Source of the DNA: Clostridia bacterium
Lineage (GTDB): Bacteria; Bacillota; Clostridia; UBA1381; UBA9506
Direction of reading: 5' to 3'
Length of the DNA: 12,196 nucleotides
Assembly: GCA_017416985.1 (NCBI GenBank)
Contig: JAFQAG010000175.1
Coordinates: 1 to 12,196, forward strand
Part shown: one piece after another, positions 1 to 12,196 of the stretch
Position numbering within the stretch: the first letter of the stretch is position 1
Layout: every line of letters begins with the position of its first letter
Program-made: the position numbers and the translations under genes
The notes under the pieces: model-generated
Databases searched by the model: none
Told to the model about the DNA's origin: nothing
The model's input: only the letters and a program-made list of their open reading frames with translations

Positions 1-61
1 TGAAATCCAATAGTACACGAATAAAAATGAAGACTTCACGAAAATAGCGGTAACAAGCAGA

Positions 62-85
62 AGGGGGCGGAGGATTCCGCTCCCT
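62..85 (-). terminator. Candidate intrinsic terminator of the leftward operon
   Basis: AGGGGGCGGA (62-71) pairs with TCCGCTCCCT (76-85), giving a 10-bp stem with one G-T pair and a GGAT loop. On the minus strand the stem starts 2 nt after the TGA at 88-90 and is followed by TCTGCTTGTT. Confidence 0.45.
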
Positions 86-87
86 AA

Positions 88-483
88 TCAAAATTTGCTT
101 AAAATATTTTTTGAATCAATGGGGCGTATATCAAATTTTCTCCAATTTTCTTCTTTTGGAATTTGTGAATTAAGGGGAGGGAGAAATTTTCTTATATATT
201 TTCCCTCTTTTTCCCCTATTTCCTCTTCTATGTCAACGTAATTCTGACTTTTGGCGTAATACAGTACATCAAAATTGATACTGTGATTTCTTTTCTAAAT
301 TTCTGCTAGAATCTTATATTTTGATTCACTTTGCATCTTAATACCCACATAGTGCTGAGAAACACGCTTTAGCATATTTGTACTTTTACCTATATACACA
401 ATAGTATTATCTATCTTTATACAGTAAATTCCTGCACGTTCGTACTTAGCATCATACCCTTTGCGTTTAAGATAATTATACAT
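88..483 (-). CDS. GIY-YIG nuclease-domain protein, 131 codons with an in-frame TAG at 295-297; the ORF-track piece 295..483 is only the N-terminal 62 aa
   Basis: The N-terminal part reads GIYCIKIDNTIVYIGKSTNMLKRVSQH, which contains the GIY, YIG and R..H motifs. After the TAG the same frame continues for 68 codons: KRNHSINFDVLYYAKSQNYVDIEEEIGEKEGKYIRKFLPPLNSQIP... This stretch carries the E...I....P.LN motif of the GIY-YIG C-terminal half. The frame ends at TGA 88-90, next to a hairpin. An AGGA lies 4 nt before ATG 483. Confidence 0.7.
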
Positions 484-509
484 ATTTTCCTAATATGTTT
501 TTTTAGGCA

Positions 510-1058
510 TTAGAAAATAAACTCTCCTTTTTCATTCATATATTCATTAATCTGTGCATTTGTTACTTTTGGATTAAAACTTTCGTTATTTATATCATTA
601 TTTTTGGGGTATATATTGTAATCGTTATTATATATTTCTGTATTATATGGCGTGCATTCTTGTATTTCCTGCGGCTTAACTTTAACGTCATTCGTACAAG
701 TATACGCAGCGGACTCTTTTTCAAGTACGGCAGGCGTCGTTTGATTTTGTGGCCTTTCATAAAAAGAAAAATGGTTGCTGCTTGTTTCGACCAAGTAACC
801 TTTATTAAGAAGTATTTTGAATTGGTCGCGGTATGTAGTTCTCGCCATTCCTATTGCCTCTGTAATAGCGGCAGGAGAAAGCGCAAGCTAATATCCGTCT
901 GCATTTGATGCTAAATATAAGTATAATCTGAGAGCGTGTGCTCCTAAGTCCTTGCTTGCGTCCATCCAATTAGCATTTTTTATGCCGAGAAAATCTCCGG
1001 ATGGACGCTCTCTGTGTATCTGAATTGTACGCTGATTTGGTGCTGTATATTGTGGCAT
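510..1058 (-). CDS. Winged-helix/HTH replication-initiator-like protein of phage/plasmid type, 182 codons with an in-frame TAG at 888-890; the ORF-track piece 510..848 is the C-terminal part
   Basis: ATG 1058 is preceded by the SD AAGGGGGA and is coupled to the upstream stop as TAA-T-ATG. Translation gives MPQYTAPNQRTIQIHRERPSGDFLGIKNANWMDASKDLGAHALRLYLYLASNADGY-TAG-LALSPAAITEAIGMARTTYRDQFKILLNKGYLVE... The pattern LYLYLASN..GY.LALSPAAI....GM.R.TY...F..L...GYL is typical of wHTH initiator/DnaD-like N-terminal domains. Confidence 0.6.
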
Positions 1059-1059
1059 A

Positions 1060-1263
1060 TTATTTTCCCCCTTTCAGTTTGAAAATTTCTTTTTCCAAAT
1101 TTTCAATTTCTTTCGATAATTTTTCTGCATCAATTTCCATATTTAAACGTTCTGCAAGTATTTTAATATTTTCTTTTTCCATTTTTTCCTGCTCCTTCTT
1201 TTTTATAATTTCGATATTGTCGCTCTTGGCTTGATTTTTTATAACCTTGCCCAATTTAAGCAC
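1060..1263 (-). CDS. Small lysine/glutamate-rich coiled-coil protein, function unknown
   Basis: This is the 67-aa ORF from the track. The AAGGAG sits directly against the GTG at 1263, so TTG at 1254 (8 nt after the SD) is the more likely start. The stop is translationally coupled to the next gene. Confidence 0.55.
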   Translation of the reverse strand: MLKLGKVIKNQAKSDNIEIIKKKEQEKMEKENIKILAERLNMEIDAEKLSKEIENLEKEIFKLKGGK

Positions 1264-1283
1264 TCCTTTTTCTATTTTTATTA

Positions 1284-1312
1284 TTGAAAGTTTTTTATCA
1301 ACTTTCTATAAT
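1284..1312 (+). promoter_or_regulatory. Candidate sigma-70-type promoter, TTGAAA-17 nt-TATAAT, firing rightward into the non-coding 1320-1725 region
   Basis: TTGAAA is at 1284-1289 and TATAAT at 1307-1312 with an exact 17-nt spacer. A second TATAAT lies at 1313-1318. AT-rich context lowers specificity. Confidence 0.4.
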
Positions 1313-1370
1313 TATAATACAATAATTTTTTTGAAAAATCAAAAAAGGACGGCACGACACGACATTAAGG

Positions 1371-1379
1371 ATTATAGCA
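1371..1379 (-). promoter_or_regulatory. Candidate extended -10 promoter (TGcTATAAT) for the leftward operon
   Basis: The reverse complement of 1371-1379 reads TGCTATAAT. I found no good -35 element. It faces the 1284-1312 promoter, so the two predicted transcripts would overlap at their 5' ends. Confidence 0.3.
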
Positions 1380-1530
1380 TAGCGGGGCAGTATTTAGGGA
1401 AATTAAAAAGAACATTAACTGATTCTGAAAATAGATGACCTTGTTGTGCTTAAAATGAATTTAAGATTTACCGTCATCGTCAGAAAAACAAGTAAAAACA
1501 AACGAAAATAATTGTATTTTATGTAGATGC

Positions 1531-1613
1531 AATGCAAATGCAAAAATATAGACGAAAACAACACAAAATAACCGCAATACAAAGAAAATAATGCGTTTTT
1601 ATGCATTTGCATT
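1531..1613. repeat. 12-bp perfect inverted repeat AATGCAAATGCA / TGCATTTGCATT with clustered TGCA motifs
   Basis: The arms are 1531-1542 and 1602-1613. Left arm context is ATGCA-ATGCA-A-ATGCA. The repeat lies in an A-rich spacer that also carries several GAAAA(T/C)AA repeats (about 1503, 1553 and 1584). Confidence 0.6.
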
Positions 1614-1650
1614 ATTTTGCAATTCTTTTTGATTATTTTCAGCAAAATAC

Positions 1651-1681
1651 TTGACATTATATATATATATAATGGTATGTA
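1651..1681 (+). promoter_or_regulatory. Candidate promoter of the rightward cassette with a (TA)7 tract in the spacer
   Basis: TTGACA is at 1651-1656 and (TA)7 at 1658-1671. One candidate -10 is TATAAT at 1668-1673, giving an 11-nt spacer. The other is TGgTATGTA at 1673-1681, giving a 19-nt spacer. Neither spacing is optimal at the current repeat number. Confidence 0.45.
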
Positions 1682-1725
1682 GGCTTTTTTGCAGACAGCA
1701 GAAAAGACCTACATTTTTTATTTTA
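1679..1725 (+). terminator. Intrinsic-terminator-like hairpin plus T-run between the promoter and the RBS of the 1741 gene
   Basis: GTAGGCTTTTTTGC (1679-1692) pairs with GCAGAAAAGACCTAC (1698-1712), giving a 14-bp stem with one bulged A (1707) and one G-T pair, and a 5-nt loop. It is followed by ATTTTTTATTTTAT. GGAGG at 1728-1732 and ATG at 1741 follow directly. Confidence 0.55.
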
Positions 1726-1740
1726 TAGGAGGTACAAGAA

Positions 1741-1965
1741 ATGAGAATTATTCTTGACACAGACAAAAAAACAATCACAGTTCCTTGGAACTACCAAACA
1801 AAACTTGACGGCATAAATGAAATTATTATGCAAGTCAGCAATGACGAAAAAAAGAAGAAATCTTTCACGGGTTACATTGATGAAATTTGGAAAGATTGTA
1901 TTGAAAACTCTGATAAATGCGTTGTAACTGGTGAAAAACCTTTTCGCAAAAAGGACAACAAATAA
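1741..1965 (+). CDS. 74-aa hypothetical protein
   Basis: GGAGG lies 8 nt upstream of the ATG. The TAA stop is coupled to the next ATG as TAA-T-ATG. I recognise no motif. Confidence 0.7.
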   Translation: MRIILDTDKKTITVPWNYQTKLDGINEIIMQVSNDEKKKKSFTGYIDEIWKDCIENSDKCVVTGEKPFRKKDNK

Positions 1966-1966
1966 T

Positions 1967-2149
1967 ATGGCTAAAAGAGTTACACCTGAAGAAATAGTTG
2001 AAATGCATCGTCTGTATGCTAAATACGGCAATTATGCCGCTGTTGGCAGAGAAATAGGACGGAGCGGCTCAACTGTTGCGAAATACATAAAATTACACGG
2101 CACACCCGACATTGTAAAACATACATTTAAAGAGGTTGTGCGAGCATAG
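1967..2149 (+). CDS. 60-aa helix-turn-helix DNA-binding protein
   Basis: The sequence is MAKRVTPEEIVEMHRLYAKYGNYAAVGREIGRSGSTVAKYIKL..., where AAVGREIGRSGSTVAKYI is a classic HTH. I prefer ATG 1967 to the track's GTG 1931 because 1931 overlaps the preceding gene by 35 nt. The gene ends in TAG (2147-2149). Confidence 0.7.
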   Translation: MAKRVTPEEIVEMHRLYAKYGNYAAVGREIGRSGSTVAKYIKLHGTPDIVKHTFKEVVRA

Positions 2150-2163
2150 AAAGGAAGATTGTT

Positions 2164-3402
2164 ATGGAAGAAAGAAATTTAAAAAAAGACACATTTAAAT
2201 TTAATCCTGCATGGTTGTTTTTTATTGTCCTGATTTTTCAGTTTCTTGCGCTTAGTGCAAGAATTCTTCGTTATTATTATGTTAATGGTATATTAACAGC
2301 AACTCTTCCTGGCAGCCTACTGTTGATAGGTGTAAGCGAACATCTTGGTTGGCTTGGATTTTTAGTAGCAACCTTTGATTCTGCGCTACTAACTCATTCT
2401 TTTTTAGATATATGTGTTACACTGATATATCTTTTAAGTGTAACTGCCATTTCGGTTCTCTGGCTTTTAAAAAAATGCGATGTAAAGCTATTAATATCTA
2501 TATCTGCAGCAAATCTTGCGCAATTAGTTTTTTACATATCACCTCTTTTTTCAGAGGTAAATTTTTTATACACCGCAAAAACCCTTTGTACTACTATTTA
2601 CTCACTGTTTATGATTATTATAGCATTAGTAGGAATCATTAAAAAATATGACAATATAAAACCAAAAATTAAACATTTGTGGTTTTTACCTATTATATTT
2701 AAGTCAATTTCTTTTATTATGTCATTATTAACCTATTGCTGCACGCTGATAGATGCTGGAGCGAGTTTACTGTTCCTAATAATGCAGTTTGACTTTTGGA
2801 TAGCTTTTGCAATTACAATAATTGAGATAATCTCAATTGCATCACTTTCACGTATATTGTTAGACGTTAAACCAAATAGATATTTATTAAAGGAGAAAAA
2901 GAAAATGCAATATTCAACCGACAATAAGTTCTATATAAACCTTACAACACACGTATTATTAACCATCTTTACTTTTGGTATATGGTATCTAATATGGGTT
3001 TATAAAACGACCGAAAAATTTAATTATATTGACGATGATACTATCGTGTATCGCTCACAAATAGCACAACTTTTACTTTGCGGATTTGTGCCTTTTTATC
3101 ATATTTACTGGACTTATCGTACAGCACAATATATTGATATATATGCTAAAAAAGAAAATGCCGAATCTAACATCAGTACTATCTGCTTGATATTAGACAT
3201 ATTCATCCCCATTATTCCACCTATTATTATGCAAGAAAAATTGAATGCTATTGTATGTGGCTCTGCTCCGAAAATAAAAAACAAATCCAGCGACGTTATA
3301 AAATCTGCTGATGAACTCAAAAAGTACAAAGATTTATTTGATAGCGGAGTTATTACTCAAGAAGAATTTGACGCAAAGAAAAAACAAATACTTGATTTAT
3401 AA
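2164..3402 (+). CDS. 412-aa polytopic membrane protein with three parts: N-terminal multi-TM domain of unknown family, DUF4234-like module and C-terminal SHOCT domain
   Basis: About seven hydrophobic segments lie in residues 1-240. THVLLTIFTFGIWYLIWVYKTTEKFNY and FVPFYHIYWTYRTAQYID resemble DUF4234 (T.GIY.L.W.Y). The C-terminus ADELKKYKDLFDSGVITQEEFDAKKKQILDL matches the SHOCT consensus. The RBS AAAGGAAG lies upstream. Confidence 0.85.
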   Translation: MEERNLKKDTFKFNPAWLFFIVLIFQFLALSARILRYYYVNGILTATLPGSLLLIGVSEHLGWLGFLVATFDSALLTHSFLDICVTLIYLLSVTAISVLWLLKKCDVKLLISISAANLAQLVFYISPLFSEVNFLYTAKTLCTTIYSLFMIIIALVGIIKKYDNIKPKIKHLWFLPIIFKSISFIMSLLTYCCTLIDAGASLLFLIMQFDFWIAFAITIIEIISIASLSRILLDVKPNRYLLKEKKKMQYSTDNKFYINLTTHVLLTIFTFGIWYLIWVYKTTEKFNYIDDDTIVYRSQIAQLLLCGFVPFYHIYWTYRTAQYIDIYAKKENAESNISTICLILDIFIPIIPPIIMQEKLNAIVCGSAPKIKNKSSDVIKSADELKKYKDLFDSGVITQEEFDAKKKQILDL

Positions 3403-3408
3403 TTTATA

Positions 3409-3443
3409 CGGAGCGGTATACAAAAACCGCTCCGAATTTCTTT
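3409..3443 (+). terminator. Intrinsic terminator after the membrane-protein gene
   Basis: CGGAGCGGT (3409-3417) pairs with ACCGCTCCG (3426-3434), giving a 9-bp GC-rich stem. It is followed by AATTTCTTTGTGTT. Confidence 0.7.
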
Positions 3444-3560
3444 GTGTTCGTAAAGGTACACCTTTATAAACACATAAAAAGCACGTGCTTTCTTTGTTTG
3501 TAAAAGTTTTAGATAAATTTGCGAATATATTCGTAAAATACTTGACATTTACGAATACTT
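3444..3560. promoter_or_regulatory. Cluster of repeated TTCGTAAA / CGAATA motifs upstream of the recombinase gene; candidate res-like or operator sites
   Basis: TTCGTAAA occurs at 3447-3454 and 3530-3537, and its inverse TTTACGAA at 3548-3555, so the last two flank the -35 box. A perfect 12-bp palindrome CGAATATATTCG lies at 3522-3533. ACGAATAC is at 3551-3558. A hairpin GTGTT..AAAGG-TACA-CCTTT..AACAC spans 3444-3473. Confidence 0.35.
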
Positions 3561-3570
3561 TTGGTATAAT
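3542..3570 (+). promoter_or_regulatory. Consensus promoter of the recombinase gene
   Basis: TTGACA (3542-3547), a 17-nt spacer and TATAAT (3565-3570), with a TGg extension at 3562-3564. The RBS AAAGGAGG is at 3586-3593 and the ATG at 3603. Confidence 0.6.
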
Positions 3571-3602
3571 ATAAACATAATCACAAAGGAGGTTTACAAA
3601 CA

Positions 3603-4205
3603 ATGGAAACACGCACATACTATTATGCAAGGGTGTCAAGCAAGGAACAAAACCTTGACCGACAGATTGAAGCCTTTAAGGCTCTTGGAGCAGACGAGCG
3701 GGACATTATCACCGACAAGGAAAGCGGCAAGGACTTGAACAGAACAGGCTACACCGCATTAAAAAATGCAATGCTCCGCAAGGGTGATACGCTTGTTATT
3801 AAATCACTCGACCGTCTTTCAAGAAACAAAACGGACATCAAAAACGAATTGCAATTTTTTAAGTATAGCGGCATACGTTTGAAAGTCATTGACTTGCCTA
3901 CAACAATGATGGACTTGCCGCAAGGTCAAGAATGGGTTTTTGAAATGGTAAACAACATTTTAATTGAGGTACTCGGCACGATTGCAGAACAAGAAAGAAA
4001 AACAATCAAAGCAAGACAGGCGGAGGGCATCGAGGCGGCAAAGAAAAATGGCAAGAAATTAGGACGTCCCGCACTCGCTTATCCTGACAATTGGAAAACT
4101 GTTTATTCGGATTGGAAAGAAGGAAAAATTACTGCAAAGGTAGCAATGGAATTGACCGATACAAAAAGAACGAGTTTTTATAAATTAGTAAATGGTATGA
4201 AATAA
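3603..4205 (+). CDS. Small serine recombinase of the resolvase/invertase family, with an N-terminal catalytic domain and a C-terminal HTH
   Basis: The motifs are YYYARVSSKEQNLDRQ (catalytic serine), SLDRLSRN, and GTIAEQERKTIKARQAEGIEAAKKNGKKLGRP (E-helix and linker). The C-terminal ITAKVAMELTDTKRTSFYKLV forms the HTH. Confidence 0.95.
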   Translation: METRTYYYARVSSKEQNLDRQIEAFKALGADERDIITDKESGKDLNRTGYTALKNAMLRKGDTLVIKSLDRLSRNKTDIKNELQFFKYSGIRLKVIDLPTTMMDLPQGQEWVFEMVNNILIEVLGTIAEQERKTIKARQAEGIEAAKKNGKKLGRPALAYPDNWKTVYSDWKEGKITAKVAMELTDTKRTSFYKLVNGMK

Positions 4206-4250
4206 AGCAATTAAATTCAAGTGCGTTGTTTTCGTGTGATTAAGATACAA

Positions 4251-4270
4251 AGTGCCGATTTCTCGGCACT
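4251..4270. other. Perfect 8-bp hairpin AGTGCCGA-TTTC-TCGGCACT, 3 nt from the tRNA fragment
   Basis: The hairpin is seen directly in the sequence. No U-run follows on the plus strand. It could be the end of the recombinase transcript or part of the attachment-site architecture. Confidence 0.5.
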
Positions 4271-4272
4271 CA

Positions 4273-4317
4273 ATGGGGTTCAAGAGGCCGCTGGTTCGAC
4301 TCCAGTCACTCAGACCA
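4273..4317 (+). tRNA. Truncated tRNA-Pro(GGG), covering only the anticodon loop to the 3' CCA; attR-type remnant, not a functional gene
   Basis: Counting back from CCA (4315-4317): A73, acceptor 3' strand CACTCAG (G72), T-arm GCTGG-TTCGACT-CCAGT, variable loop AGGCC, anticodon-stem 3' strand TCAAG, and loop ATGGGGT (U33, GGG, G37). C1:G72 plus A73 and G37 are hallmarks of bacterial tRNA-Pro. The required 5' partners CTTGA and CTGAGTG and a D-arm are absent upstream. Confidence 0.6.
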
Positions 4318-4320
4318 CGT

Positions 4321-4352
4321 CGGAACAAGTTTTGCTTGTTCCGATTTTTTTT
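4321..4352 (+). terminator. Strong intrinsic terminator immediately after the tRNA 3' end
   Basis: CGGAACAAG (4321-4329) pairs with CTTGTTCCG (4335-4343), giving a 9-bp stem. It is followed by A and then T8 (4345-4352). Confidence 0.85.
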
Positions 4353-4510: not shown

Positions 4511-5800
4511 ATGTCTTTAGAATCATTAGCTGGAAAAAAACTGCTCATTCTTGCGGGAGATGTCAATTTTGTCACTTTAGTAAAAAGGGCAAAAGAGTTA
4601 GGCATTTATACCATAGTCACAGACTATTACGATACTAAACAAAGTCCTGCAAAATTAGTAGCAGATGAGTATTGGAATATTAGTTGGGATGACATAGATG
4701 CCCTTGAAAAGAAGTGTCGTGAGGAAAATATTAATGGTGTAACTACGGGATATAGCGAGTCACCAGTCGGATGTTGTATCGAACTGTGTGAGCGTTTGGG
4801 TCTTCCTTGTTATAGTACTAAAGAGCAACTTGAGCTTACGAAAGATAAAGTTCTTTTCAAAGATATGTGCCGGAAAAATGGAGTTCCTGTTGTAAATGAA
4901 TATGCAACACTTGAAGAGGTGAATTCTTTTCCTGTTATCGTTAAACCTGTAGATAGAGCAGGCTCAATTGGCATCAGTGTAGCCACCAATACTGAAGAAT
5001 TGCAAAAAGCATATGACTACGCTATGGAAAAATCATATTCTAAGAGTGTAATTATCGAAGACTTTATTTGTAGCGGTTCAAAATTTGATGTAATATATGC
5101 TATTTGTAGTGGAAAGCCTATTTTGGTATCCGATTGTGATACAATTAATGCGCAAGATAATGGATTTGAAAGGGTTGTCCAAAGTGGCTGGCTATATCCT
5201 TCGCATTATCATAGCTTCTTTATGGAAAAAGTCGATGCCTCAATTCAAAAGATGATTAAAAATCTTGGTGTAAAAGATGGATACATATTCTTCTCGGGTT
5301 TTGCAATTGAGCGTGATGGAGATGTGGAATTTGTATTTTTTGAAACAGGTTACAGATTAAATGGTGGACATACGTACACTTATATGAGTGAGCGCGGAAT
5401 TGTTAATATTCTTGATTTGTTTATTATACATGCTTTGACAGGAAGTACTGAGCTGCTTGAATGGAAGGAAGAAAAAAATCCCGGACTTAAGTGTGCGATG
5501 GTAAATTATTATGCTGCAGATGGAAAAGTTTCTGAATTTAAAGGTCTTGACGAAATAGAAAATATGGATGACTGCAGTATCTTAATTCAGTTCGGCAAAG
5601 TCGGAGATAAATGTGATACACAAAGAGCAATTCTTTCAAAAATGTCGATGGTTCATTTTTGTAATCATTCACCTGAAAAATTAGCCGAAGACGTAGCCCA
5701 TGCCAATAATGTTTATTCAGTTAGGGATGAAAATGGTAATGATATGGTTTACGACAGAATGGATCCGTCGGTTATTACTAAATGGTGGGATAAAAAATGA
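4511..5800 (+). CDS. ATP-grasp domain protein, likely a carboxylate-amine/amino-acid ligase type; substrate unknown
   Basis: A strong SD GGGAGGGG lies 6 nt upstream. The protein has a pre-ATP-grasp N-domain (KKLLILAGDVNFVTLVKRAKELGIYT). The motifs K..FKDMCRKNGVPV, FPVIVKPVDRAGSIGI, VIIEDFI and FFETGYRLNGG fit the ATP-grasp fold. Confidence 0.9.
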   Translation: MSLESLAGKKLLILAGDVNFVTLVKRAKELGIYTIVTDYYDTKQSPAKLVADEYWNISWDDIDALEKKCREENINGVTTGYSESPVGCCIELCERLGLPCYSTKEQLELTKDKVLFKDMCRKNGVPVVNEYATLEEVNSFPVIVKPVDRAGSIGISVATNTEELQKAYDYAMEKSYSKSVIIEDFICSGSKFDVIYAICSGKPILVSDCDTINAQDNGFERVVQSGWLYPSHYHSFFMEKVDASIQKMIKNLGVKDGYIFFSGFAIERDGDVEFVFFETGYRLNGGHTYTYMSERGIVNILDLFIIHALTGSTELLEWKEEKNPGLKCAMVNYYAADGKVSEFKGLDEIENMDDCSILIQFGKVGDKCDTQRAILSKMSMVHFCNHSPEKLAEDVAHANNVYSVRDENGNDMVYDRMDPSVITKWWDKK

Positions 5801-6017: not shown

Positions 6018-6704
6018 ATGAAGAGTGGTGAAGTCGTGAACAAAAGAATTCATATTATTGTAGGTCATTACGGAAGCGGAAAAACAGAGTTTGCAATAAA
6101 CTATGCAATTAAGCTAAAAGAAAGCTATGATAAGGTTATGATTGCAGATTTAGATATAGTAAACCCCTATTTTCGTACCAATGATGTAAAAGATATGCTC
6201 GAAAAAGAGGGTATTTCAGTTTTGGCGTCGCAGTATGCTGGCAGCAATGTTGACATACCGGCATTACCTGCAAATATACACAGCCTGTTTGATGATAAAA
6301 ATGCAGCCGTTGTTTTAGATGTCGGTGGCGACGAAGACGGAGCAGTGGTGCTGGGAAGATTTAAACAGCAAATCGAAGCAGAGGGTTACGAGATGCTGTT
6401 TGTGGTAAATACATTCAGACCATTAACAAATGATTGTGATTCTATTTTACAGGTGTTAGGCGAGGTTGAAGATGCAAGTCGCCTTAAAGTTACTGGCATT
6501 ATTAATAATTCAAATCTTCAGCATTTAACAAAAACAGATGATGTTATAAAAGGTCAGAGAGAGATAGAAATAGCAGCTAAAAAGCACGGCGTTGCCGTGT
6601 CATATATATCGGGATTGCCCGAGGTGCTTGACGGTTTAGACGAAAAAGCCAAAGAAAAGGCATTTCCCATTAAAAGATACCTGGATTTGGGGTATGAGTT
6701 TTAG
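6018..6704 (+). CDS. P-loop NTPase of unknown function, first gene of the oxidoreductase operon
   Basis: The Walker A motif is GHYGSGKTE, and the Walker-B-like stretch is AAVVLDVGGDEDG. The start is uncertain: ATG 6018 or the in-frame GTG 6036, which is preceded by GGTG. The gene ends TAG-TAA. Confidence 0.85.
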   Translation: MKSGEVVNKRIHIIVGHYGSGKTEFAINYAIKLKESYDKVMIADLDIVNPYFRTNDVKDMLEKEGISVLASQYAGSNVDIPALPANIHSLFDDKNAAVVLDVGGDEDGAVVLGRFKQQIEAEGYEMLFVVNTFRPLTNDCDSILQVLGEVEDASRLKVTGIINNSNLQHLTKTDDVIKGQREIEIAAKKHGVAVSYISGLPEVLDGLDEKAKEKAFPIKRYLDLGYEF

Positions 6705-6987: not shown

Positions 6988-8031
6988 ATGGCTGAAAAAG
7001 TTTTGGTAAAAGGAAACGAAGCCCTTGCAGAAGCGGCTATTCTTTCCGGCTGCCGTCATTATTTTGGTTATCCGATTACACCGCAGACAGAAATTGCTGC
7101 ATATATGGCAAAACGTATGCCGAAGGTTGGCGGTGTATTTCTTCAGGCAGAAAGTGAGCTTGCTGCCGCAAATATGGTATTTGGTGCTGCCGGTGCAGGT
7201 GCACGTGCACTTACATCATCTTCAAGCCCCGGTATCAGCTTAAAGGCTGAGGCTCTGTCTTATATCGCAGGCTGTGATTTGCCCTGCGTTGTTGTAAACA
7301 TCGTTCGTGCGGGTCCGGGTCTTGGTGGTATCCAGCCGGCACAGTCTGATTATTATCAGGCTACAAAAGGCCATGGTCACGGCGACTATCAGATGATTGT
7401 TTTAGCACCAAGCTCTGTTCAGGAAATTATCCACTTAACAGCAGATGCGTTTGATTTAGCTGACCTCTATCGCATGCCTGTTATGATTATGGGCGATGGT
7501 ATGTTAGGACAGATGATGGAGCCTGTTGAGTTTGACCTCGGCGAACGCCGCAAACTGCCTGAAAAAGACTGGGCAACAACAGGAACAGATATGAAACGTA
7601 AGCACAACATTATAAACTCGCTCATTATGAATCCTGACGATTTAGAGGCTTGTGTTCGTGCACGCTATGAAAGATACGAGCAGATTAAAGCTACCGAGGC
7701 AAGAGCTGAGGAATATATGATTACGGCATACGGCACAACTGCACGTATTGTTAAAAATGCTATCGTTGAACTGCGTAAAAAGGGAATTAAAGTTGGTCTT
7801 GTTCGTCCGATTACACTCTGGCCGTTCCCAGAAGCTACTTACAAAAAATATGCTGACAAGGTTTCGGCAATCTTAAGTGTTGAAATGAGCATGGGTCAGA
7901 TGGTTGACGATGTAAGACTTGCAGTAAACGATAAAGTACCCGTACATTTTTACGGTCGTACCGGTGGTAACATTCCGTATCCGGACGAAATTATTAAAGC
8001 TATGGAAGAGATTGCAGGAGGTGACAAATAA
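6988..8031 (+). CDS. 2-oxoacid:ferredoxin oxidoreductase alpha subunit (KorA/VorB-type)
   Basis: The N-terminus GNEALAEAAILSGCRHYFGYPITPQTEI and the stretch FLQAESELAAANMVFGAAGAGARALTSSSSPG are typical of alpha subunits. The protein is 347 aa. Confidence 0.95.
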   Translation: MAEKVLVKGNEALAEAAILSGCRHYFGYPITPQTEIAAYMAKRMPKVGGVFLQAESELAAANMVFGAAGAGARALTSSSSPGISLKAEALSYIAGCDLPCVVVNIVRAGPGLGGIQPAQSDYYQATKGHGHGDYQMIVLAPSSVQEIIHLTADAFDLADLYRMPVMIMGDGMLGQMMEPVEFDLGERRKLPEKDWATTGTDMKRKHNIINSLIMNPDDLEACVRARYERYEQIKATEARAEEYMITAYGTTARIVKNAIVELRKKGIKVGLVRPITLWPFPEATYKKYADKVSAILSVEMSMGQMVDDVRLAVNDKVPVHFYGRTGGNIPYPDEIIKAMEEIAGGDK

Positions 8032-9809: not shown

Positions 9810-11014
9810 ACGACAAAATACTTTCGGGCAAGCACATTTTAATAGGTGTATGCGGAGGAATTGCAGCATATAAAATTCCTGACTTGATAAGTAAATTAGT
9901 GAAACTGGGTGCAGAGGTTAAAGTTGTTATGACGCACGCTGCAACCGAGTTTGTAACACCGCTTACATTTCAGTCAATGTCACATAATCCAGTTGCAGTT
10001 GATATGTTTTCTGAACCTGTTGCGTGGGAAATAAGACATATATCATTAGCGCAATGGACAGATACTTTGCTTGTTGCTCCTGCAACTGCAAATATGATAG
10101 GAAAGCTTGCAAACGGCATAGCAGACGATATGCTCTCAACAGTTGCTATGGCGACTCGTTCACAGGTTTTGGTTGCTCCGGCAATGAATACAGCTATGTA
10201 TGAAAATGCGGCAACTCAGGCAAACATTAAAACCTTAAAAGAACGAGGAATAAAAATAATTGAGCCGGCAGAGGGAAGACTTGCTTGCGGAGATAGCGGC
10301 AAAGGCAAACTTGCCGATATAGATGTATTACTCAATTCACTTATATATGAAGTAGCATTTGAAAAGGATTTATCAGGTAAAAAAGTTTTAGTAACTGCAG
10401 GTGCAACGGTTGAATCAGTTGACCCTGTACGCTTTTTAACAAATCATTCAAGCGGAAAAATGGGTATAGAAATTGCACGTGCGGCACAGCTGCGTGGTGC
10501 AGATGTAACCTTGGTCTGCGGAAATATTAGTGTAGAAACTCCTATGGGGGTTAATGTTATAAAGGTTAAAAGTGCTCAGGATATGTTTGATGCGTGCGTA
10601 TCGCATCAGAAAGAGGCAGATGTTATAATAAAAGCAGCGGCGGTTGCGGACTTTAAACCAAAAGATGTCGCCGATAACAAAATTAAAAAAGAAGGTGGCT
10701 TTGAGGGGGTAATCCGCTTAGAGCAGAATCCGGATATTTTAAAGTATTTAGGGGAGCATAAACCGGCAGGACAGATTCTGGTCGGATTCTGTATGGAAAC
10801 TCAGGATTTAATAGAAAACGCAAAGAAAAAGCTTGACAAGAAAAATCTTGATATGATTGTTGCAAACAGCTTAACAGAGCCGAATGCAGGCTTTAAATCA
10901 GATACAAATACAGTTACAATTTTAGATAAAACCGGAAAAATCGAAGCCTTAGATAATATGAGTAAATTCTGTGTTGCGCAAGAATTGCTTGACAGGGTGG
11001 TAAAATGTCTGTGA
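9794..11014 (+). CDS. coaBC: Bifunctional phosphopantothenoylcysteine decarboxylase / phosphopantothenate-cysteine ligase
   Basis: The flavoprotein N-domain reads ILIGVCGGIAAYK...PAMN. The CoaB domain reads VTAGATVESVDPVRFLTNHSSGKMG...AAAVADF. The start is ATG 9794 or, more likely given SD spacing, ATG 9803. It overlaps the end of recX. Confidence 0.95.
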   Translation: MERMLNDKILSGKHILIGVCGGIAAYKIPDLISKLVKLGAEVKVVMTHAATEFVTPLTFQSMSHNPVAVDMFSEPVAWEIRHISLAQWTDTLLVAPATANMIGKLANGIADDMLSTVAMATRSQVLVAPAMNTAMYENAATQANIKTLKERGIKIIEPAEGRLACGDSGKGKLADIDVLLNSLIYEVAFEKDLSGKKVLVTAGATVESVDPVRFLTNHSSGKMGIEIARAAQLRGADVTLVCGNISVETPMGVNVIKVKSAQDMFDACVSHQKEADVIIKAAAVADFKPKDVADNKIKKEGGFEGVIRLEQNPDILKYLGEHKPAGQILVGFCMETQDLIENAKKKLDKKNLDMIVANSLTEPNAGFKSDTNTVTILDKTGKIEALDNMSKFCVAQELLDRVVKCL

Positions 11015-12196
11015 AAAATGTCGTCGGTGTTGTAGTTGACCGAATGGCACGAGAGGTTGATCGTGTTTTTCATTATACTGCACCTGACGAAATGTATAAA
11101 AAAATGCAAATAGGGCTTTCGGTTTTAGTTCCGTTTGGTCGTGGCGATAACGTTTTAGAGGGTTATGTTGTAGAACTGCCCGAAGAAACCGAATACAAAG
11201 AGTTAAAAGAAGTCAGAGCAATTTTATCAGAAGAGCCTTTGTTTGACGGTAAAATGCTTGAGGTATGTCGGCATATGCAGGATACCTGCTTTTGCACGCT
11301 TGCGTCGGCAATAAAGGCAATAACACCTCCCGGCAGAGGAGTTCGCAGAAATTGCGTAAACGATAAGATAATAAACGGCTCACGCTTGGCGATATCGAAC
11401 GACGAGGCATTTTCGGTTTTAGAAAATATCCGTGCCAAAGCACCAAAGCAGGCAAAAATAATTGAACTTTTGCTTCAGAATGATTTTGTTGCAAACGTAG
11501 ACATACGGTTAATTACCGGAGCAGGTCAGGGAGCAATAAAGGCATTAGAGCAAAAGGGCATTATATGCCCTTGCTATATAGAGGTTTTCAGAAAACCAGT
11601 TGATTTTTCGAAAATTAAAAGAACACAGCCGTTTGTTCCGACTAAAGAGCAGGATATAGCAATTAAAGAAGTTGCAAATTCGATAGAATCGGGTAAAAAC
11701 CAGACGTTTTTGCTACACGGAGTTACCGGCAGCGGAAAAACCGAGGTGTTTTTGCAATGCATCGAAACTGTTATTAAAAAAGGTAAAAGTGCAATAGTTT
11801 TAGTACCCGAAATTGCTTTAACTCCGCAAACGGTCGAAAGGTTTGTAGGCAGATTCGGAGAAAGAATAGCCATTATCCATTCAAGATTATCGCTCGGTGA
11901 GCGTCACGATGAATATAAAAGAATATTATCGGGCGAGGTTGATGTGGTGGTTGGCGTGCGTTCGGCAATATTTGCGCCACTTAAAAATCTTGGCTTAATT
12001 GTTATGGATGAGGAACACGAAACCTCTTATAAGGCAGAAAACGTGCCTGCATATCACGCACGTGATATTGCACTTTTAAGAGCTAAGCAATATAAAATAC
12101 CCCTTATTTTAGCATCGGCAACTCCTTGCATGGAAAGCTATTTTCGTGCACAAACCAGCGAGTATAAGCTTTTAGAGCTGACCGCCAGAGCAAACA
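11005..12196 (+). CDS. priA: Primosomal protein N' (PriA helicase), 5' part, running off the window
   Basis: This gene is not in the ORF track because the frame is open to the window end. The sequence is MSVKNVVGVVVDRMAREVDRVFHYTAP...LSVLVPFGRGDNVLEGYVVEL, with Walker A LLHGVTGSGKTEVF at about 11709 and the DEEHE box at about 12007. ATG 11005 overlaps the end of coaBC by 10 nt. Confidence 0.9.
   Translation, partial: MSVKNVVGVVVDRMAREVDRVFHYTAPDEMYKKMQIGLSVLVPFGRGDNVLEGYVVELPEETEYKELKEVRAILSEEPLFDGKMLEVCRHMQDTCFCTLASAIKAITPPGRGVRRNCVNDKIINGSRLAISNDEAFSVLENIRAKAPKQAKIIELLLQNDFVANVDIRLITGAGQGAIKALEQKGIICPCYIEVFRKPVDFSKIKRTQPFVPTKEQDIAIKEVANSIESGKNQTFLLHGVTGSGKTEVFLQCIETVIKKGKSAIVLVPEIALTPQTVERFVGRFGERIAIIHSRLSLGERHDEYKRILSGEVDVVVGVRSAIFAPLKNLGLIVMDEEHETSYKAENVPAYHARDIALLRAKQYKIPLILASATPCMESYFRAQTSEYKLLELTARAN

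Follow-up and report, generated by a model that had tools for sequence, protein, structure and literature searches.

In-frame TAG codons matching glutamine are confined to one operon of a small tRNA-less integrative element in gut Clostridia

The 12,196-nt contig JAFQAG010000175.1 of a Clostridia bacterium (assembly GCA_017416985.1; this whole stretch is called the window below) holds most of a small integrative element, about 5.36 kb long between its attachment (att) repeats and situated at the 3' end of a host tRNA-Pro(GGG) gene. Two adjacent genes of its leftward operon, encoding a GIY-YIG nuclease and a winged-helix protein resembling replication initiators (Rep-like protein, or Rep), are interrupted by in-frame TAG codons. 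Our comparative analyses revealed that TAG behaves as a sense codon for glutamine in this operon throughout a family of related elements, whose hosts use TAG as a stop. Recoding is limited to the three genes of the leftward operon; the integrase, resolvase, regulators and cargo are intact under the standard code (code 11), and a genome-wide recoding, with a large gain in coding density under code 15, is not seen in the element. The element carries no tRNA gene, and its backbone genes have homologues in TAG-recoded phages. We give an even chance to the reading that this is a hitch-hiking element whose replication operon can be translated only once a factor acting in trans, most likely from a TAG-recoded phage, has switched the code.

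The leftward operon in the window is composed as follows:

88..510, minus strand: GIY-YIG nuclease gene, last of the leftward operon, from ATG 510-508 (or ATG 483-481) to TGA 90-88
295..297, minus strand: in-frame TAG of the GIY-YIG gene, codon 62 counted from ATG 483 (reading frame, homologue alignment)
490..492, minus strand: in-frame TAG, probably the third of the window, within the dispensable N-terminal extension of the GIY-YIG protein (homologue alignment)
510..1058, minus strand: winged-helix Rep-like gene, 182 codons, from ATG 1058-1056 to TAA 512-510
888..890, minus strand: in-frame TAG, codon 57 of the Rep-like gene (reading frame, homologue alignment)
1060..1263, minus strand: small coiled-coil gene, 67 codons, first of the leftward operon; no TAG in the window's copy

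The initial annotation, made from the letters of the window alone, had located TAGs at 295-297 and 888-890 on the leftward strand, and both coordinates were borne out. Read from ATG 483-481, the GIY-YIG gene stays open for 68 codons after its TAG, as had been counted, while the Rep-like gene has 125 such codons instead of 126. The final stops, TGA 90-88 and TAA 512-510, and the position of a hairpin at 61-85 beyond the final stop were also correctly given. That the nuclease domain continues past the interruption is confirmed by a Pfam GIY-YIG match (PF01541) spanning TAG 295-297, with 26.8 bits against a cut-off of 22.6, and hundreds of uninterrupted full-length homologues align across the TAGs of both genes. 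With a domain above its gathering score and the conserved positions in place, the protein belongs to the GIY-YIG superfamily; the residues invariant across 18 aligned sequences include Y20, Y30, G32, R40, E88 and N105.

The assertion that each gene has exactly one internal stop is probably wrong for the nuclease gene. Its homologues bear an N-terminal extension of 7-10 residues, some of them starting directly at MYNWLKRKG. The matching frame of the window begins at ATG 510-508, overlapping the Rep stop as TAATG; its 140 codons start with MPKKTY*ENMYNYLKRKG and include a TAG at 490-492, which is probably the third in-frame TAG of the window. Because some homologues start at the second methionine, the extension appears to be dispensable, and a start at ATG 483-481 would bypass this TAG. 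In a contig identical to the window, standard-code calling has left Rep and GIY-YIG as four fragments, of 56, 112 and 62 amino acids (aa) plus an uncalled remainder.

The distribution of such codons was surveyed across the family by taking one genome per species, which yielded 80 loci, almost all from gut or rumen Clostridia and most of them metagenome-assembled genomes (MAGs). The carriers belong to Oscillospiraceae, Acutalibacteraceae, Ruminococcus, Faecousia and some Lachnospiraceae; four are cultured isolates, and the cultured carriers include Oscillibacter valericigenes An860, Pseudoflavonifractor phocaeensis An901 and Oribacterium sp. P6A1. Six-frame translations with stops masked were aligned to per-gene profiles, and the stops were counted in the first 85% of each gene:

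Rep: internal TAG in 38 of 82 genes, 61 TAGs, no other internal stop
GIY-YIG: internal TAG in 26 of 34 genes, 35 TAGs, one TAA
Integrase: internal TAG in 0 of 48 genes, no other stop
Resolvase: internal TAG in 0 of 47 genes, no other stop
74-aa gene: internal TAG in 0 of 40 genes, no other stop
Helix-turn-helix (HTH) gene: internal TAG in 0 of 41 genes, no other stop

Each profile match was confined to one frame in all 116 Rep and GIY-YIG genes, and as many as 5 TAGs were found in one Rep gene. The small gene upstream of Rep also forms a conserved family, and in many loci it has in-frame TAGs beyond its start codon. An all-versus-all comparison of open reading frames (ORFs) in which TAG was read as sense, with greedy frame selection, recovered Rep, GIY-YIG and this small gene but no further TAG-bearing family, the remaining matches being antisense artefacts or upstream leaders. 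TAG accounts for 12% (96/812) of the Gln-like codons in Rep and GIY-YIG versus 0/788 in the integrase and resolvase (Fisher test on codons, p=3e-30), and the same test on distinct alignment columns, 37 versus 0, which is conservative with respect to shared ancestry, gave p=6e-16. Among 38 distinct internal stop sites, 37 are TAG, where random nonsense mutation would give 34% (p=2e-16).

The alignments indicate what TAG stands for. In column 9 of Rep, all 61 sequences without TAG have Gln and 21 have TAG; in column 79, Gln occupies 74 of 74 and TAG is found in 8. Column 114 of GIY-YIG has Gln in 32 of its 32 non-TAG sequences, and column 50 has Gln in 15 of 18, with 16 TAGs. When each column counts once, Gln has a log-likelihood of -86, Glu of -107 and Lys of -112, so that Gln is ahead of Glu by 21 nats. 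In the genes of the leftward operon, TAG thus behaves in these alignments as a Gln sense codon. The initial annotation had left the residue at TAG to be read from homologues, with Gln, Trp and Tyr as examples; it is Gln family-wide at invariant columns, whereas the three TAGs of the window itself lie at variable columns, with Gln among the residues there. The column of TAG 295-297 contains Arg (12), Gln (10) and TAG (3 other loci) in relatives, that of TAG 490-492 mostly Glu or Ala, and that of TAG 888-890 Thr, Asn, Ser, Met or Leu, with Glu in the closest relative. This relative (L002), from a different sample, has the same architecture and a Rep 69% identical to that of the window. At the window's three TAG positions it has Glu, Gln and Glu, and its GIY-YIG gene, which ends in TAA, has two in-frame TAGs at two other positions.

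The interrupted genes bear the mark of selection. In 17 pairwise comparisons of TAG-bearing relatives (10 Rep, 7 GIY-YIG), the ratio of nonsynonymous to synonymous substitution rates (dN/dS) was 0.13-0.29 overall and 0.12-0.35 downstream of the first TAG, suggesting that the downstream parts are translated and under selection. No shared nucleotide context was found around 77 distinct TAGs, which argues against a read-through signal in cis.

Judged by their own genes, the hosts follow the standard code and terminate at TAG. Code 11 leaves the window's host genes intact, and long flanking host ORFs end in TAG in 10.8% of cases beside TAG-bearing elements and in 7.8% beside TAG-free ones. One host gene of the window (6018-6704) ends in TAG with a second stop directly after it, and such tandem stops occur in 2 of the 14 long flanking ORFs that end in TAG at TAG-bearing loci. 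Neither the window nor the loci scanned (L001-L109 except L093, with about 1 Mb of flanking host DNA) yielded a tRNA(CUA). The delimited element contains no tRNA gene at all; a relaxed ARAGORN search of it returned noise and no CTA anticodon. Because no CUA-anticodon tRNA was found in the element or these loci, the decoding agent would lie outside the element. That the integrase, resolvase and regulators are strictly free of TAG suggests two cell states, an ordinary one and one in which TAG is read as Gln. Since the element is devoid of tRNA and its hosts stop at TAG, the operon would be translatable only in a cell switched to the latter state.

The limits of the element could be fixed with a metagenome scaffold (L001) that has the same sequence as the window and runs further left, past the window end. 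The rest of the tyrosine integrase gene is found there, followed by an intact tRNA-Pro(GGG) gene (L001 11848-11924; attL) and then remA, recF, an S4-domain gene and dnaA. An exact direct repeat of the 46 nt at the end of this tRNA gene, identical to L001 11848-11893, stands at window 4272-4317. The order from dnaA to tRNA-Pro recurs in a contig from a related MAG (L092), which lacks the element, and the attR copy is identical to the 3' end of the tRNA-Pro there. The element is therefore fully delimited, at about 5.36 kb, by the repeat and this empty site. Only two differences separate the window from L001: a single-nucleotide polymorphism at window 778, non-synonymous (Ser/Thr) in the Rep-like gene, and a 21-nt in-frame indel at window 7722. 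The indel lies inside the host gene 6988-8031 for a 2-oxoacid:ferredoxin oxidoreductase alpha-subunit, which encodes 347 aa in the window and 354 aa in L001.

The element has eight genes, in the order integrase, leftward operon (coiled-coil, Rep-like and GIY-YIG genes), control region and rightward operon (74-aa, HTH_38, cargo and serine recombinase genes), followed by attR. Its features outside the leftward operon, as far as the window holds them, are:

1..47, plus strand: 3' end of the tyrosine integrase gene, with its TAG stop at 45-47, then one codon, then TAA
61-85, no strand assigned: G+C-rich hairpin between the convergent integrase and GIY-YIG genes (-17.2 kcal/mol, z -2.95)
1264..1740, no strand assigned: A+T-rich control region from which the two operons diverge; direct and inverted repeats, e.g. 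AATGCAAATGCAAAAA / TTTATGCATTTGCATT (repeat analysis)
1741..1965, plus strand: conserved small gene (74 aa, sm74), first of the rightward operon; 40 homologues, no internal stop
1967..2149, plus strand: HTH_38-type DNA-binding gene (60 aa; Pfam), ending in TAG; in-frame TAG absent in every relative examined
2164..3402, plus strand: cargo gene for a 412-aa membrane protein with DUF4234 and SHOCT domains (Pfam); the slot varies between elements
3603..4205, plus strand: small serine recombinase of the resolvase/invertase type (200 aa; Pfam/PHROG); 47 genes, no internal stop
4272..4317, plus strand: attR, the right element boundary, a 46-nt copy of the tRNA-Pro(GGG) 3' end (identity with L001 and L092)
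4319..4345, plus strand: terminator-like hairpin with a T-run, directly after attR (terminator scan)

The hairpin at 61-85 is not called by a simple terminator scan and no T-run follows it; the one at 4319-4345 is presumably the original terminator of the tRNA. The control region is presumed to be the promoter and origin region, and promoter-like sites are no commoner in it than in shuffled sequence. The HTH gene ends in TAG with 10 codons to the next TAA, as the initial annotation had described, but a meaningful read-through there is not borne out by the family, since only 2 of 41 homologues end in TAG. A PHROG search found no head, tail or terminase matches in the element, the PADLOC and NCBIfam libraries gave nothing specific, and Rfam found nothing in the window. 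Neither megablast of window 1-4300 nor tblastn of Rep matched anything in plasmid and phage collections.

Between the HTH gene and the resolvase, the DUF4234/SHOCT protein of the window recurs in about 10 other loci. The same slot holds a Cu_amine_oxidN1 protein in L002 (1023-2306) and, in 14 loci including L035 (10998-12057), a protein of about 350 aa without an assigned function. A host ATP-grasp gene (window 4511-5800) stands directly right of attR where L092 has a gene for a leucine-rich-repeat protein instead, so that the region downstream of the tRNA is itself variable.

Across the family, the targets of integration are tRNA-Pro, Val, Ala, Lys or Leu genes, beside which the elements sit. 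In Oscillibacter valericigenes An860 (L066) and Pseudoflavonifractor phocaeensis An901 (L076), the regions of the Rep operon and the resolvase share about 93% DNA identity and have TAGs at the same positions, while the cargo differs; the elements are built of modules and pass from one genus to another. In L084 (IMGVR_UViG_3300045988_073130), a contig of 96 kb with a viral classification, a Rep and GIY-YIG copy with two TAGs lies at one end (1-400) and, about 10 kb away on the other strand (9998-11085), a second Rep-like fragment with a TAG; the contig may be either a phage with captured elements or a host contig. Three loci come from bins labelled Helicobacteraceae (L012), Alphaproteobacteria (L033) and Bacteroidaceae (L067). 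The first two are short (2-4 kb) and the third has the element at the end of a 52.5-kb contig; these labels are probably binning errors rather than signs of a wider host range.

A replication role for the Rep-like protein is suggested by sequence and modelling. The protein matches PHROG 270, "replication initiation protein", with an E-value of 1e-6, and has weak, generic winged helix-turn-helix (wHTH) matches only in Pfam; a PDB sequence search with it gave no match. In its AlphaFold model, a wHTH domain is confidently predicted at the N-terminus; the best fold match was to the N-terminal region of the Geobacillus primosome protein DnaB (5wtn; probability 0.99, E-value 0.017, TM-score 0.36), with RctB domain 1 also among the matches.

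TAG-recoded phages of the same bacterial groups offer the closest comparison, and a study of them by Borges et al. was reportedly published in Nat Microbiol in 2022. The preprint (Borges et al., bioRxiv 10.1101/2021.08.26.457843) describes TAG-recoded Topaz prophages of 22±3 kb in Oscillospiraceae, which are located at tRNA-Thr and have integrases avoiding in-frame TAG; a TAG suppressor tRNA was detected in only 40% of TAG-recoded phages. Our search of IMG/VR with the nuclease profile returned three contigs of 18.6-27.2 kb (L096-L098), in which ORFs of 100 aa or more reach a coverage of 0.45-0.65 under the standard code and of 0.81-0.88 once TAG is taken as sense. All have a TAG-free integrase of the same family as that of the element and a GIY-YIG gene, with 1-5 TAGs, whose product is 40-49% identical to the window's. 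A distant Rep homologue occurs in two of the three, the L097 copy having a TAG at the position of Q9, and in L098 a tRNA-Thr stands beside the integrase. The genes of the element's rightward operon are absent from these three contigs.

One of these phages, IMGVR_UViG_3300045988_102862 (L096 and L101 together), was reconstructed in full as a complete-looking tailed phage of 22,505 bp. Its major head, TerL, portal, tape-measure and tail proteins have up to 10 TAGs each, and TAG occurs in 27 of 34 genes, making up 26% of the Gln-like codons. No tRNA gene was found in it by ARAGORN or Rfam, in agreement with the suppressor figure of Borges et al., and Rfam detected only a host tRNA-Thr on the phage contigs. 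Its TAG-free genes other than the integrase are candidates for a code-change factor. The initial annotation had also proposed a TAG-recoded code like that of gut phages. The reading of TAG as Gln and the kinship with Topaz-like phages agree with this proposal, but the recoding covers one operon only and the element encodes no suppressor tRNA.

From these results, we infer that decoding is conditional, as well as the likely supplier and the role of the operon once expressed. In an ordinary cell, the TAG-free integrase, resolvase, regulators and cargo would work, while the leftward operon would stay silent in the integrated element. The most likely trigger would be a TAG-recoded temperate phage of these hosts, Topaz-like and about 22 kb in size, that infects the cell or is induced in it. 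In the recoded state TAG would be read as Gln, and the Rep-like and nuclease proteins would be produced. The element might then act as a hitch-hiker or satellite-like replicon, or possibly as a nuclease-bearing defence island. More tentatively, and at somewhat less than an even chance, the element family as a whole may use the genetic code as a sensor, waking, replicating and hitch-hiking on or attacking a TAG-recoded phage, or answering a state of the host. The gating of expression by a suppressor supplied in trans had been the most speculative idea of the initial annotation. It fits the operon-specific distribution of TAG best, with a phage and the host as candidate suppliers.

Several observations weigh against a phage-triggered replicon. 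In roughly half of the related elements Rep is free of TAG, so that gating is not obligatory for the family, and the "Rep" assignment is itself weak. The likeness to phage genes is distant, at 40-49% identity for GIY-YIG and only at the level of hidden Markov models for Rep and the integrase. No non-coding, cos- or pac-like sequence is common to the element and the phage contigs, no circular-contig signature was seen among the short contigs, and no supplier of the code switch and no packaging, excision or helper-response function was found in the element or the loci examined. The Topaz-like phage examined in full also has no tRNA gene, so that a phage origin of the suppressor is putative. Moreover, the TAG pattern could reflect neutral drift instead of adaptation: if the operon is needed only in the recoded state, the exchange of CAG and TAG would be neutral there and lethal elsewhere, leaving the same footprint. 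A host-encoded or unconventional decoding mechanism is equally conceivable.

The main rival is a conditional TAG = Gln state supplied by the host and used by small elements and tRNA-less phages alike. A suppressor tRNA-Gln(CUA), or the switching-off of release factor 1 under, for example, stress or the SOS response, would then act in Oscillospiraceae, Acutalibacteraceae and their relatives with no helper phage. We regard this as unlikely on balance, although the full Topaz-like phage, recoded in most of its genes without any tRNA gene, speaks for it, as does the minority of TAG-recoded phages with a suppressor tRNA (Borges et al., 10.1101/2021.08.26.457843). The TAG-free integrase and regulators imply a two-state cell, which accords with a host switch but is silent on who controls it. 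On the other hand, TAG stops are as frequent as normal in flanking host genes and are not depleted beside TAG-bearing elements, and the roughly 1 Mb of flanking host DNA contains no tRNA(CUA). We know of no natural conditional amber suppressor in these bacteria. Near-cognate tRNAs, tRNA-Gln among them, also read UAG at low frequency, and the TAGs might be mere attenuators decoded in this way by ordinary tRNA-Gln with no dedicated suppressor. The one to two TAGs per gene of the window would suit such natural read-through, which we nevertheless consider improbable: with up to five TAGs in one Rep and TAGs in all three operon genes of relatives, the yield would be multiplied down to nothing. There is also no conserved read-through context, and a TAG share of 12% of Gln-like codons is typical of a sense codon.

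The operon might instead have been carried over passively from TAG-recoded phages, in which homologous modules exist, and persist in small elements as non-functional baggage. This is very improbable given the low dN/dS between element copies, including the parts downstream of the TAGs, the single non-TAG stop and the single-frame matches across 116 genes, and the conservation of the same operon in more than 80 species-level genomes at different tRNA sites; the phage homologues are, in addition, only distantly related. Least probable of all are plain decay, with two or three recent nonsense mutations in the window's copy, and insertion of pyrrolysine by the host, both of which the initial annotation had listed. 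The variable columns at which the window's three TAGs lie would be compatible with decay, but the TAGs are also present in the near-identical second assembly (L001), and decay is refuted by the TAGs found family-wide at many positions, their alignment with invariant Gln, the near-absence of TAA and TGA, the single-frame matches and the purifying selection downstream. For pyrrolysine, the neighbouring ATP-grasp gene has a PylC-like_N Pfam match, at 17.3 bits below the cut-off of 27, which is probably generic ATP-grasp similarity and no evidence of pyrrolysine synthesis. Neither pyl genes nor tRNA(CUA) were seen in the loci examined, the TAGs align with Gln columns, and flanking host genes terminate at TAG at normal rates; this decoding was therefore rejected.

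Stop-codon recoding, so far described as a property of phage genomes, is here operon-specific and resides in a minimal non-phage element, so that conditional use of the code is extended from phages to their possible parasites or partners. The TAG-bearing and TAG-free gene sets show which genes work in the recoded and which in the ordinary cell. Standard-code annotation splits the former or calls them pseudogenes in many gut genome assemblies. The tRNA-less element and the tRNA-less 22-kb phage together sharpen a problem noted by Borges et al., namely that most TAG-recoded phages have no detectable suppressor. If the hitch-hiker reading is true, it would be the first case in nature in which a change of the genetic code triggers a satellite-like or defence-like element, and a tiny element without tRNA would provide a minimal handle on how tRNA-less recoded phages change the code. 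With eight genes and with cultured carriers at hand, it is a small, tractable test object. In the library searched, no publication on plasmids, integrative elements or satellites gated by amber codons came up, which is no proof of novelty.

Among known systems, the Topaz phages (Borges et al.) share with the element TAG = Gln in conserved genes, hosts with the standard code, integration at tRNA genes, a TAG-free integrase, and the integrase, GIY-YIG and wHTH families. In contrast, the element measures only 5.36 kb, lacks virion, packaging and lysis genes, and is recoded in one three-gene replication/nuclease operon instead of a structural/lysis module; its TAG-free rightward operon, with two regulators, cargo and the serine recombinase, is missing from the phages examined. 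Minimal phage satellites, PICMI (PMC10803314) and those of the PICI/P4 type, resemble it in being small chromosomal islands whose site is fixed and which combine an integrase and a few regulators with a replication module and variable cargo. With an integrase, att sites at tRNA-Pro and a Rep-like gene, the element has the make-up of a PICI/PICMI-like satellite, its replication role being a putative one. Unlike PICI, PICMI and P4-type satellites, it has no AlpA, Fis, primase or terS homology. It is proposed, from its sequence, to be silent until a helper phage alters the cell, as these satellites are. Known satellites are de-repressed by helper proteins, whereas the cue proposed here, a change of the genetic code acting on translation, is not a known mechanism of satellite induction. 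Finally, laboratory amber-suppressor systems, such as conditional amber mutants and synthetic biocontainment, likewise have essential functions interrupted by TAG and expressed in dependence on a suppressor; the arrangement in the element, however, is natural, conserved across a large family and kept by selection.

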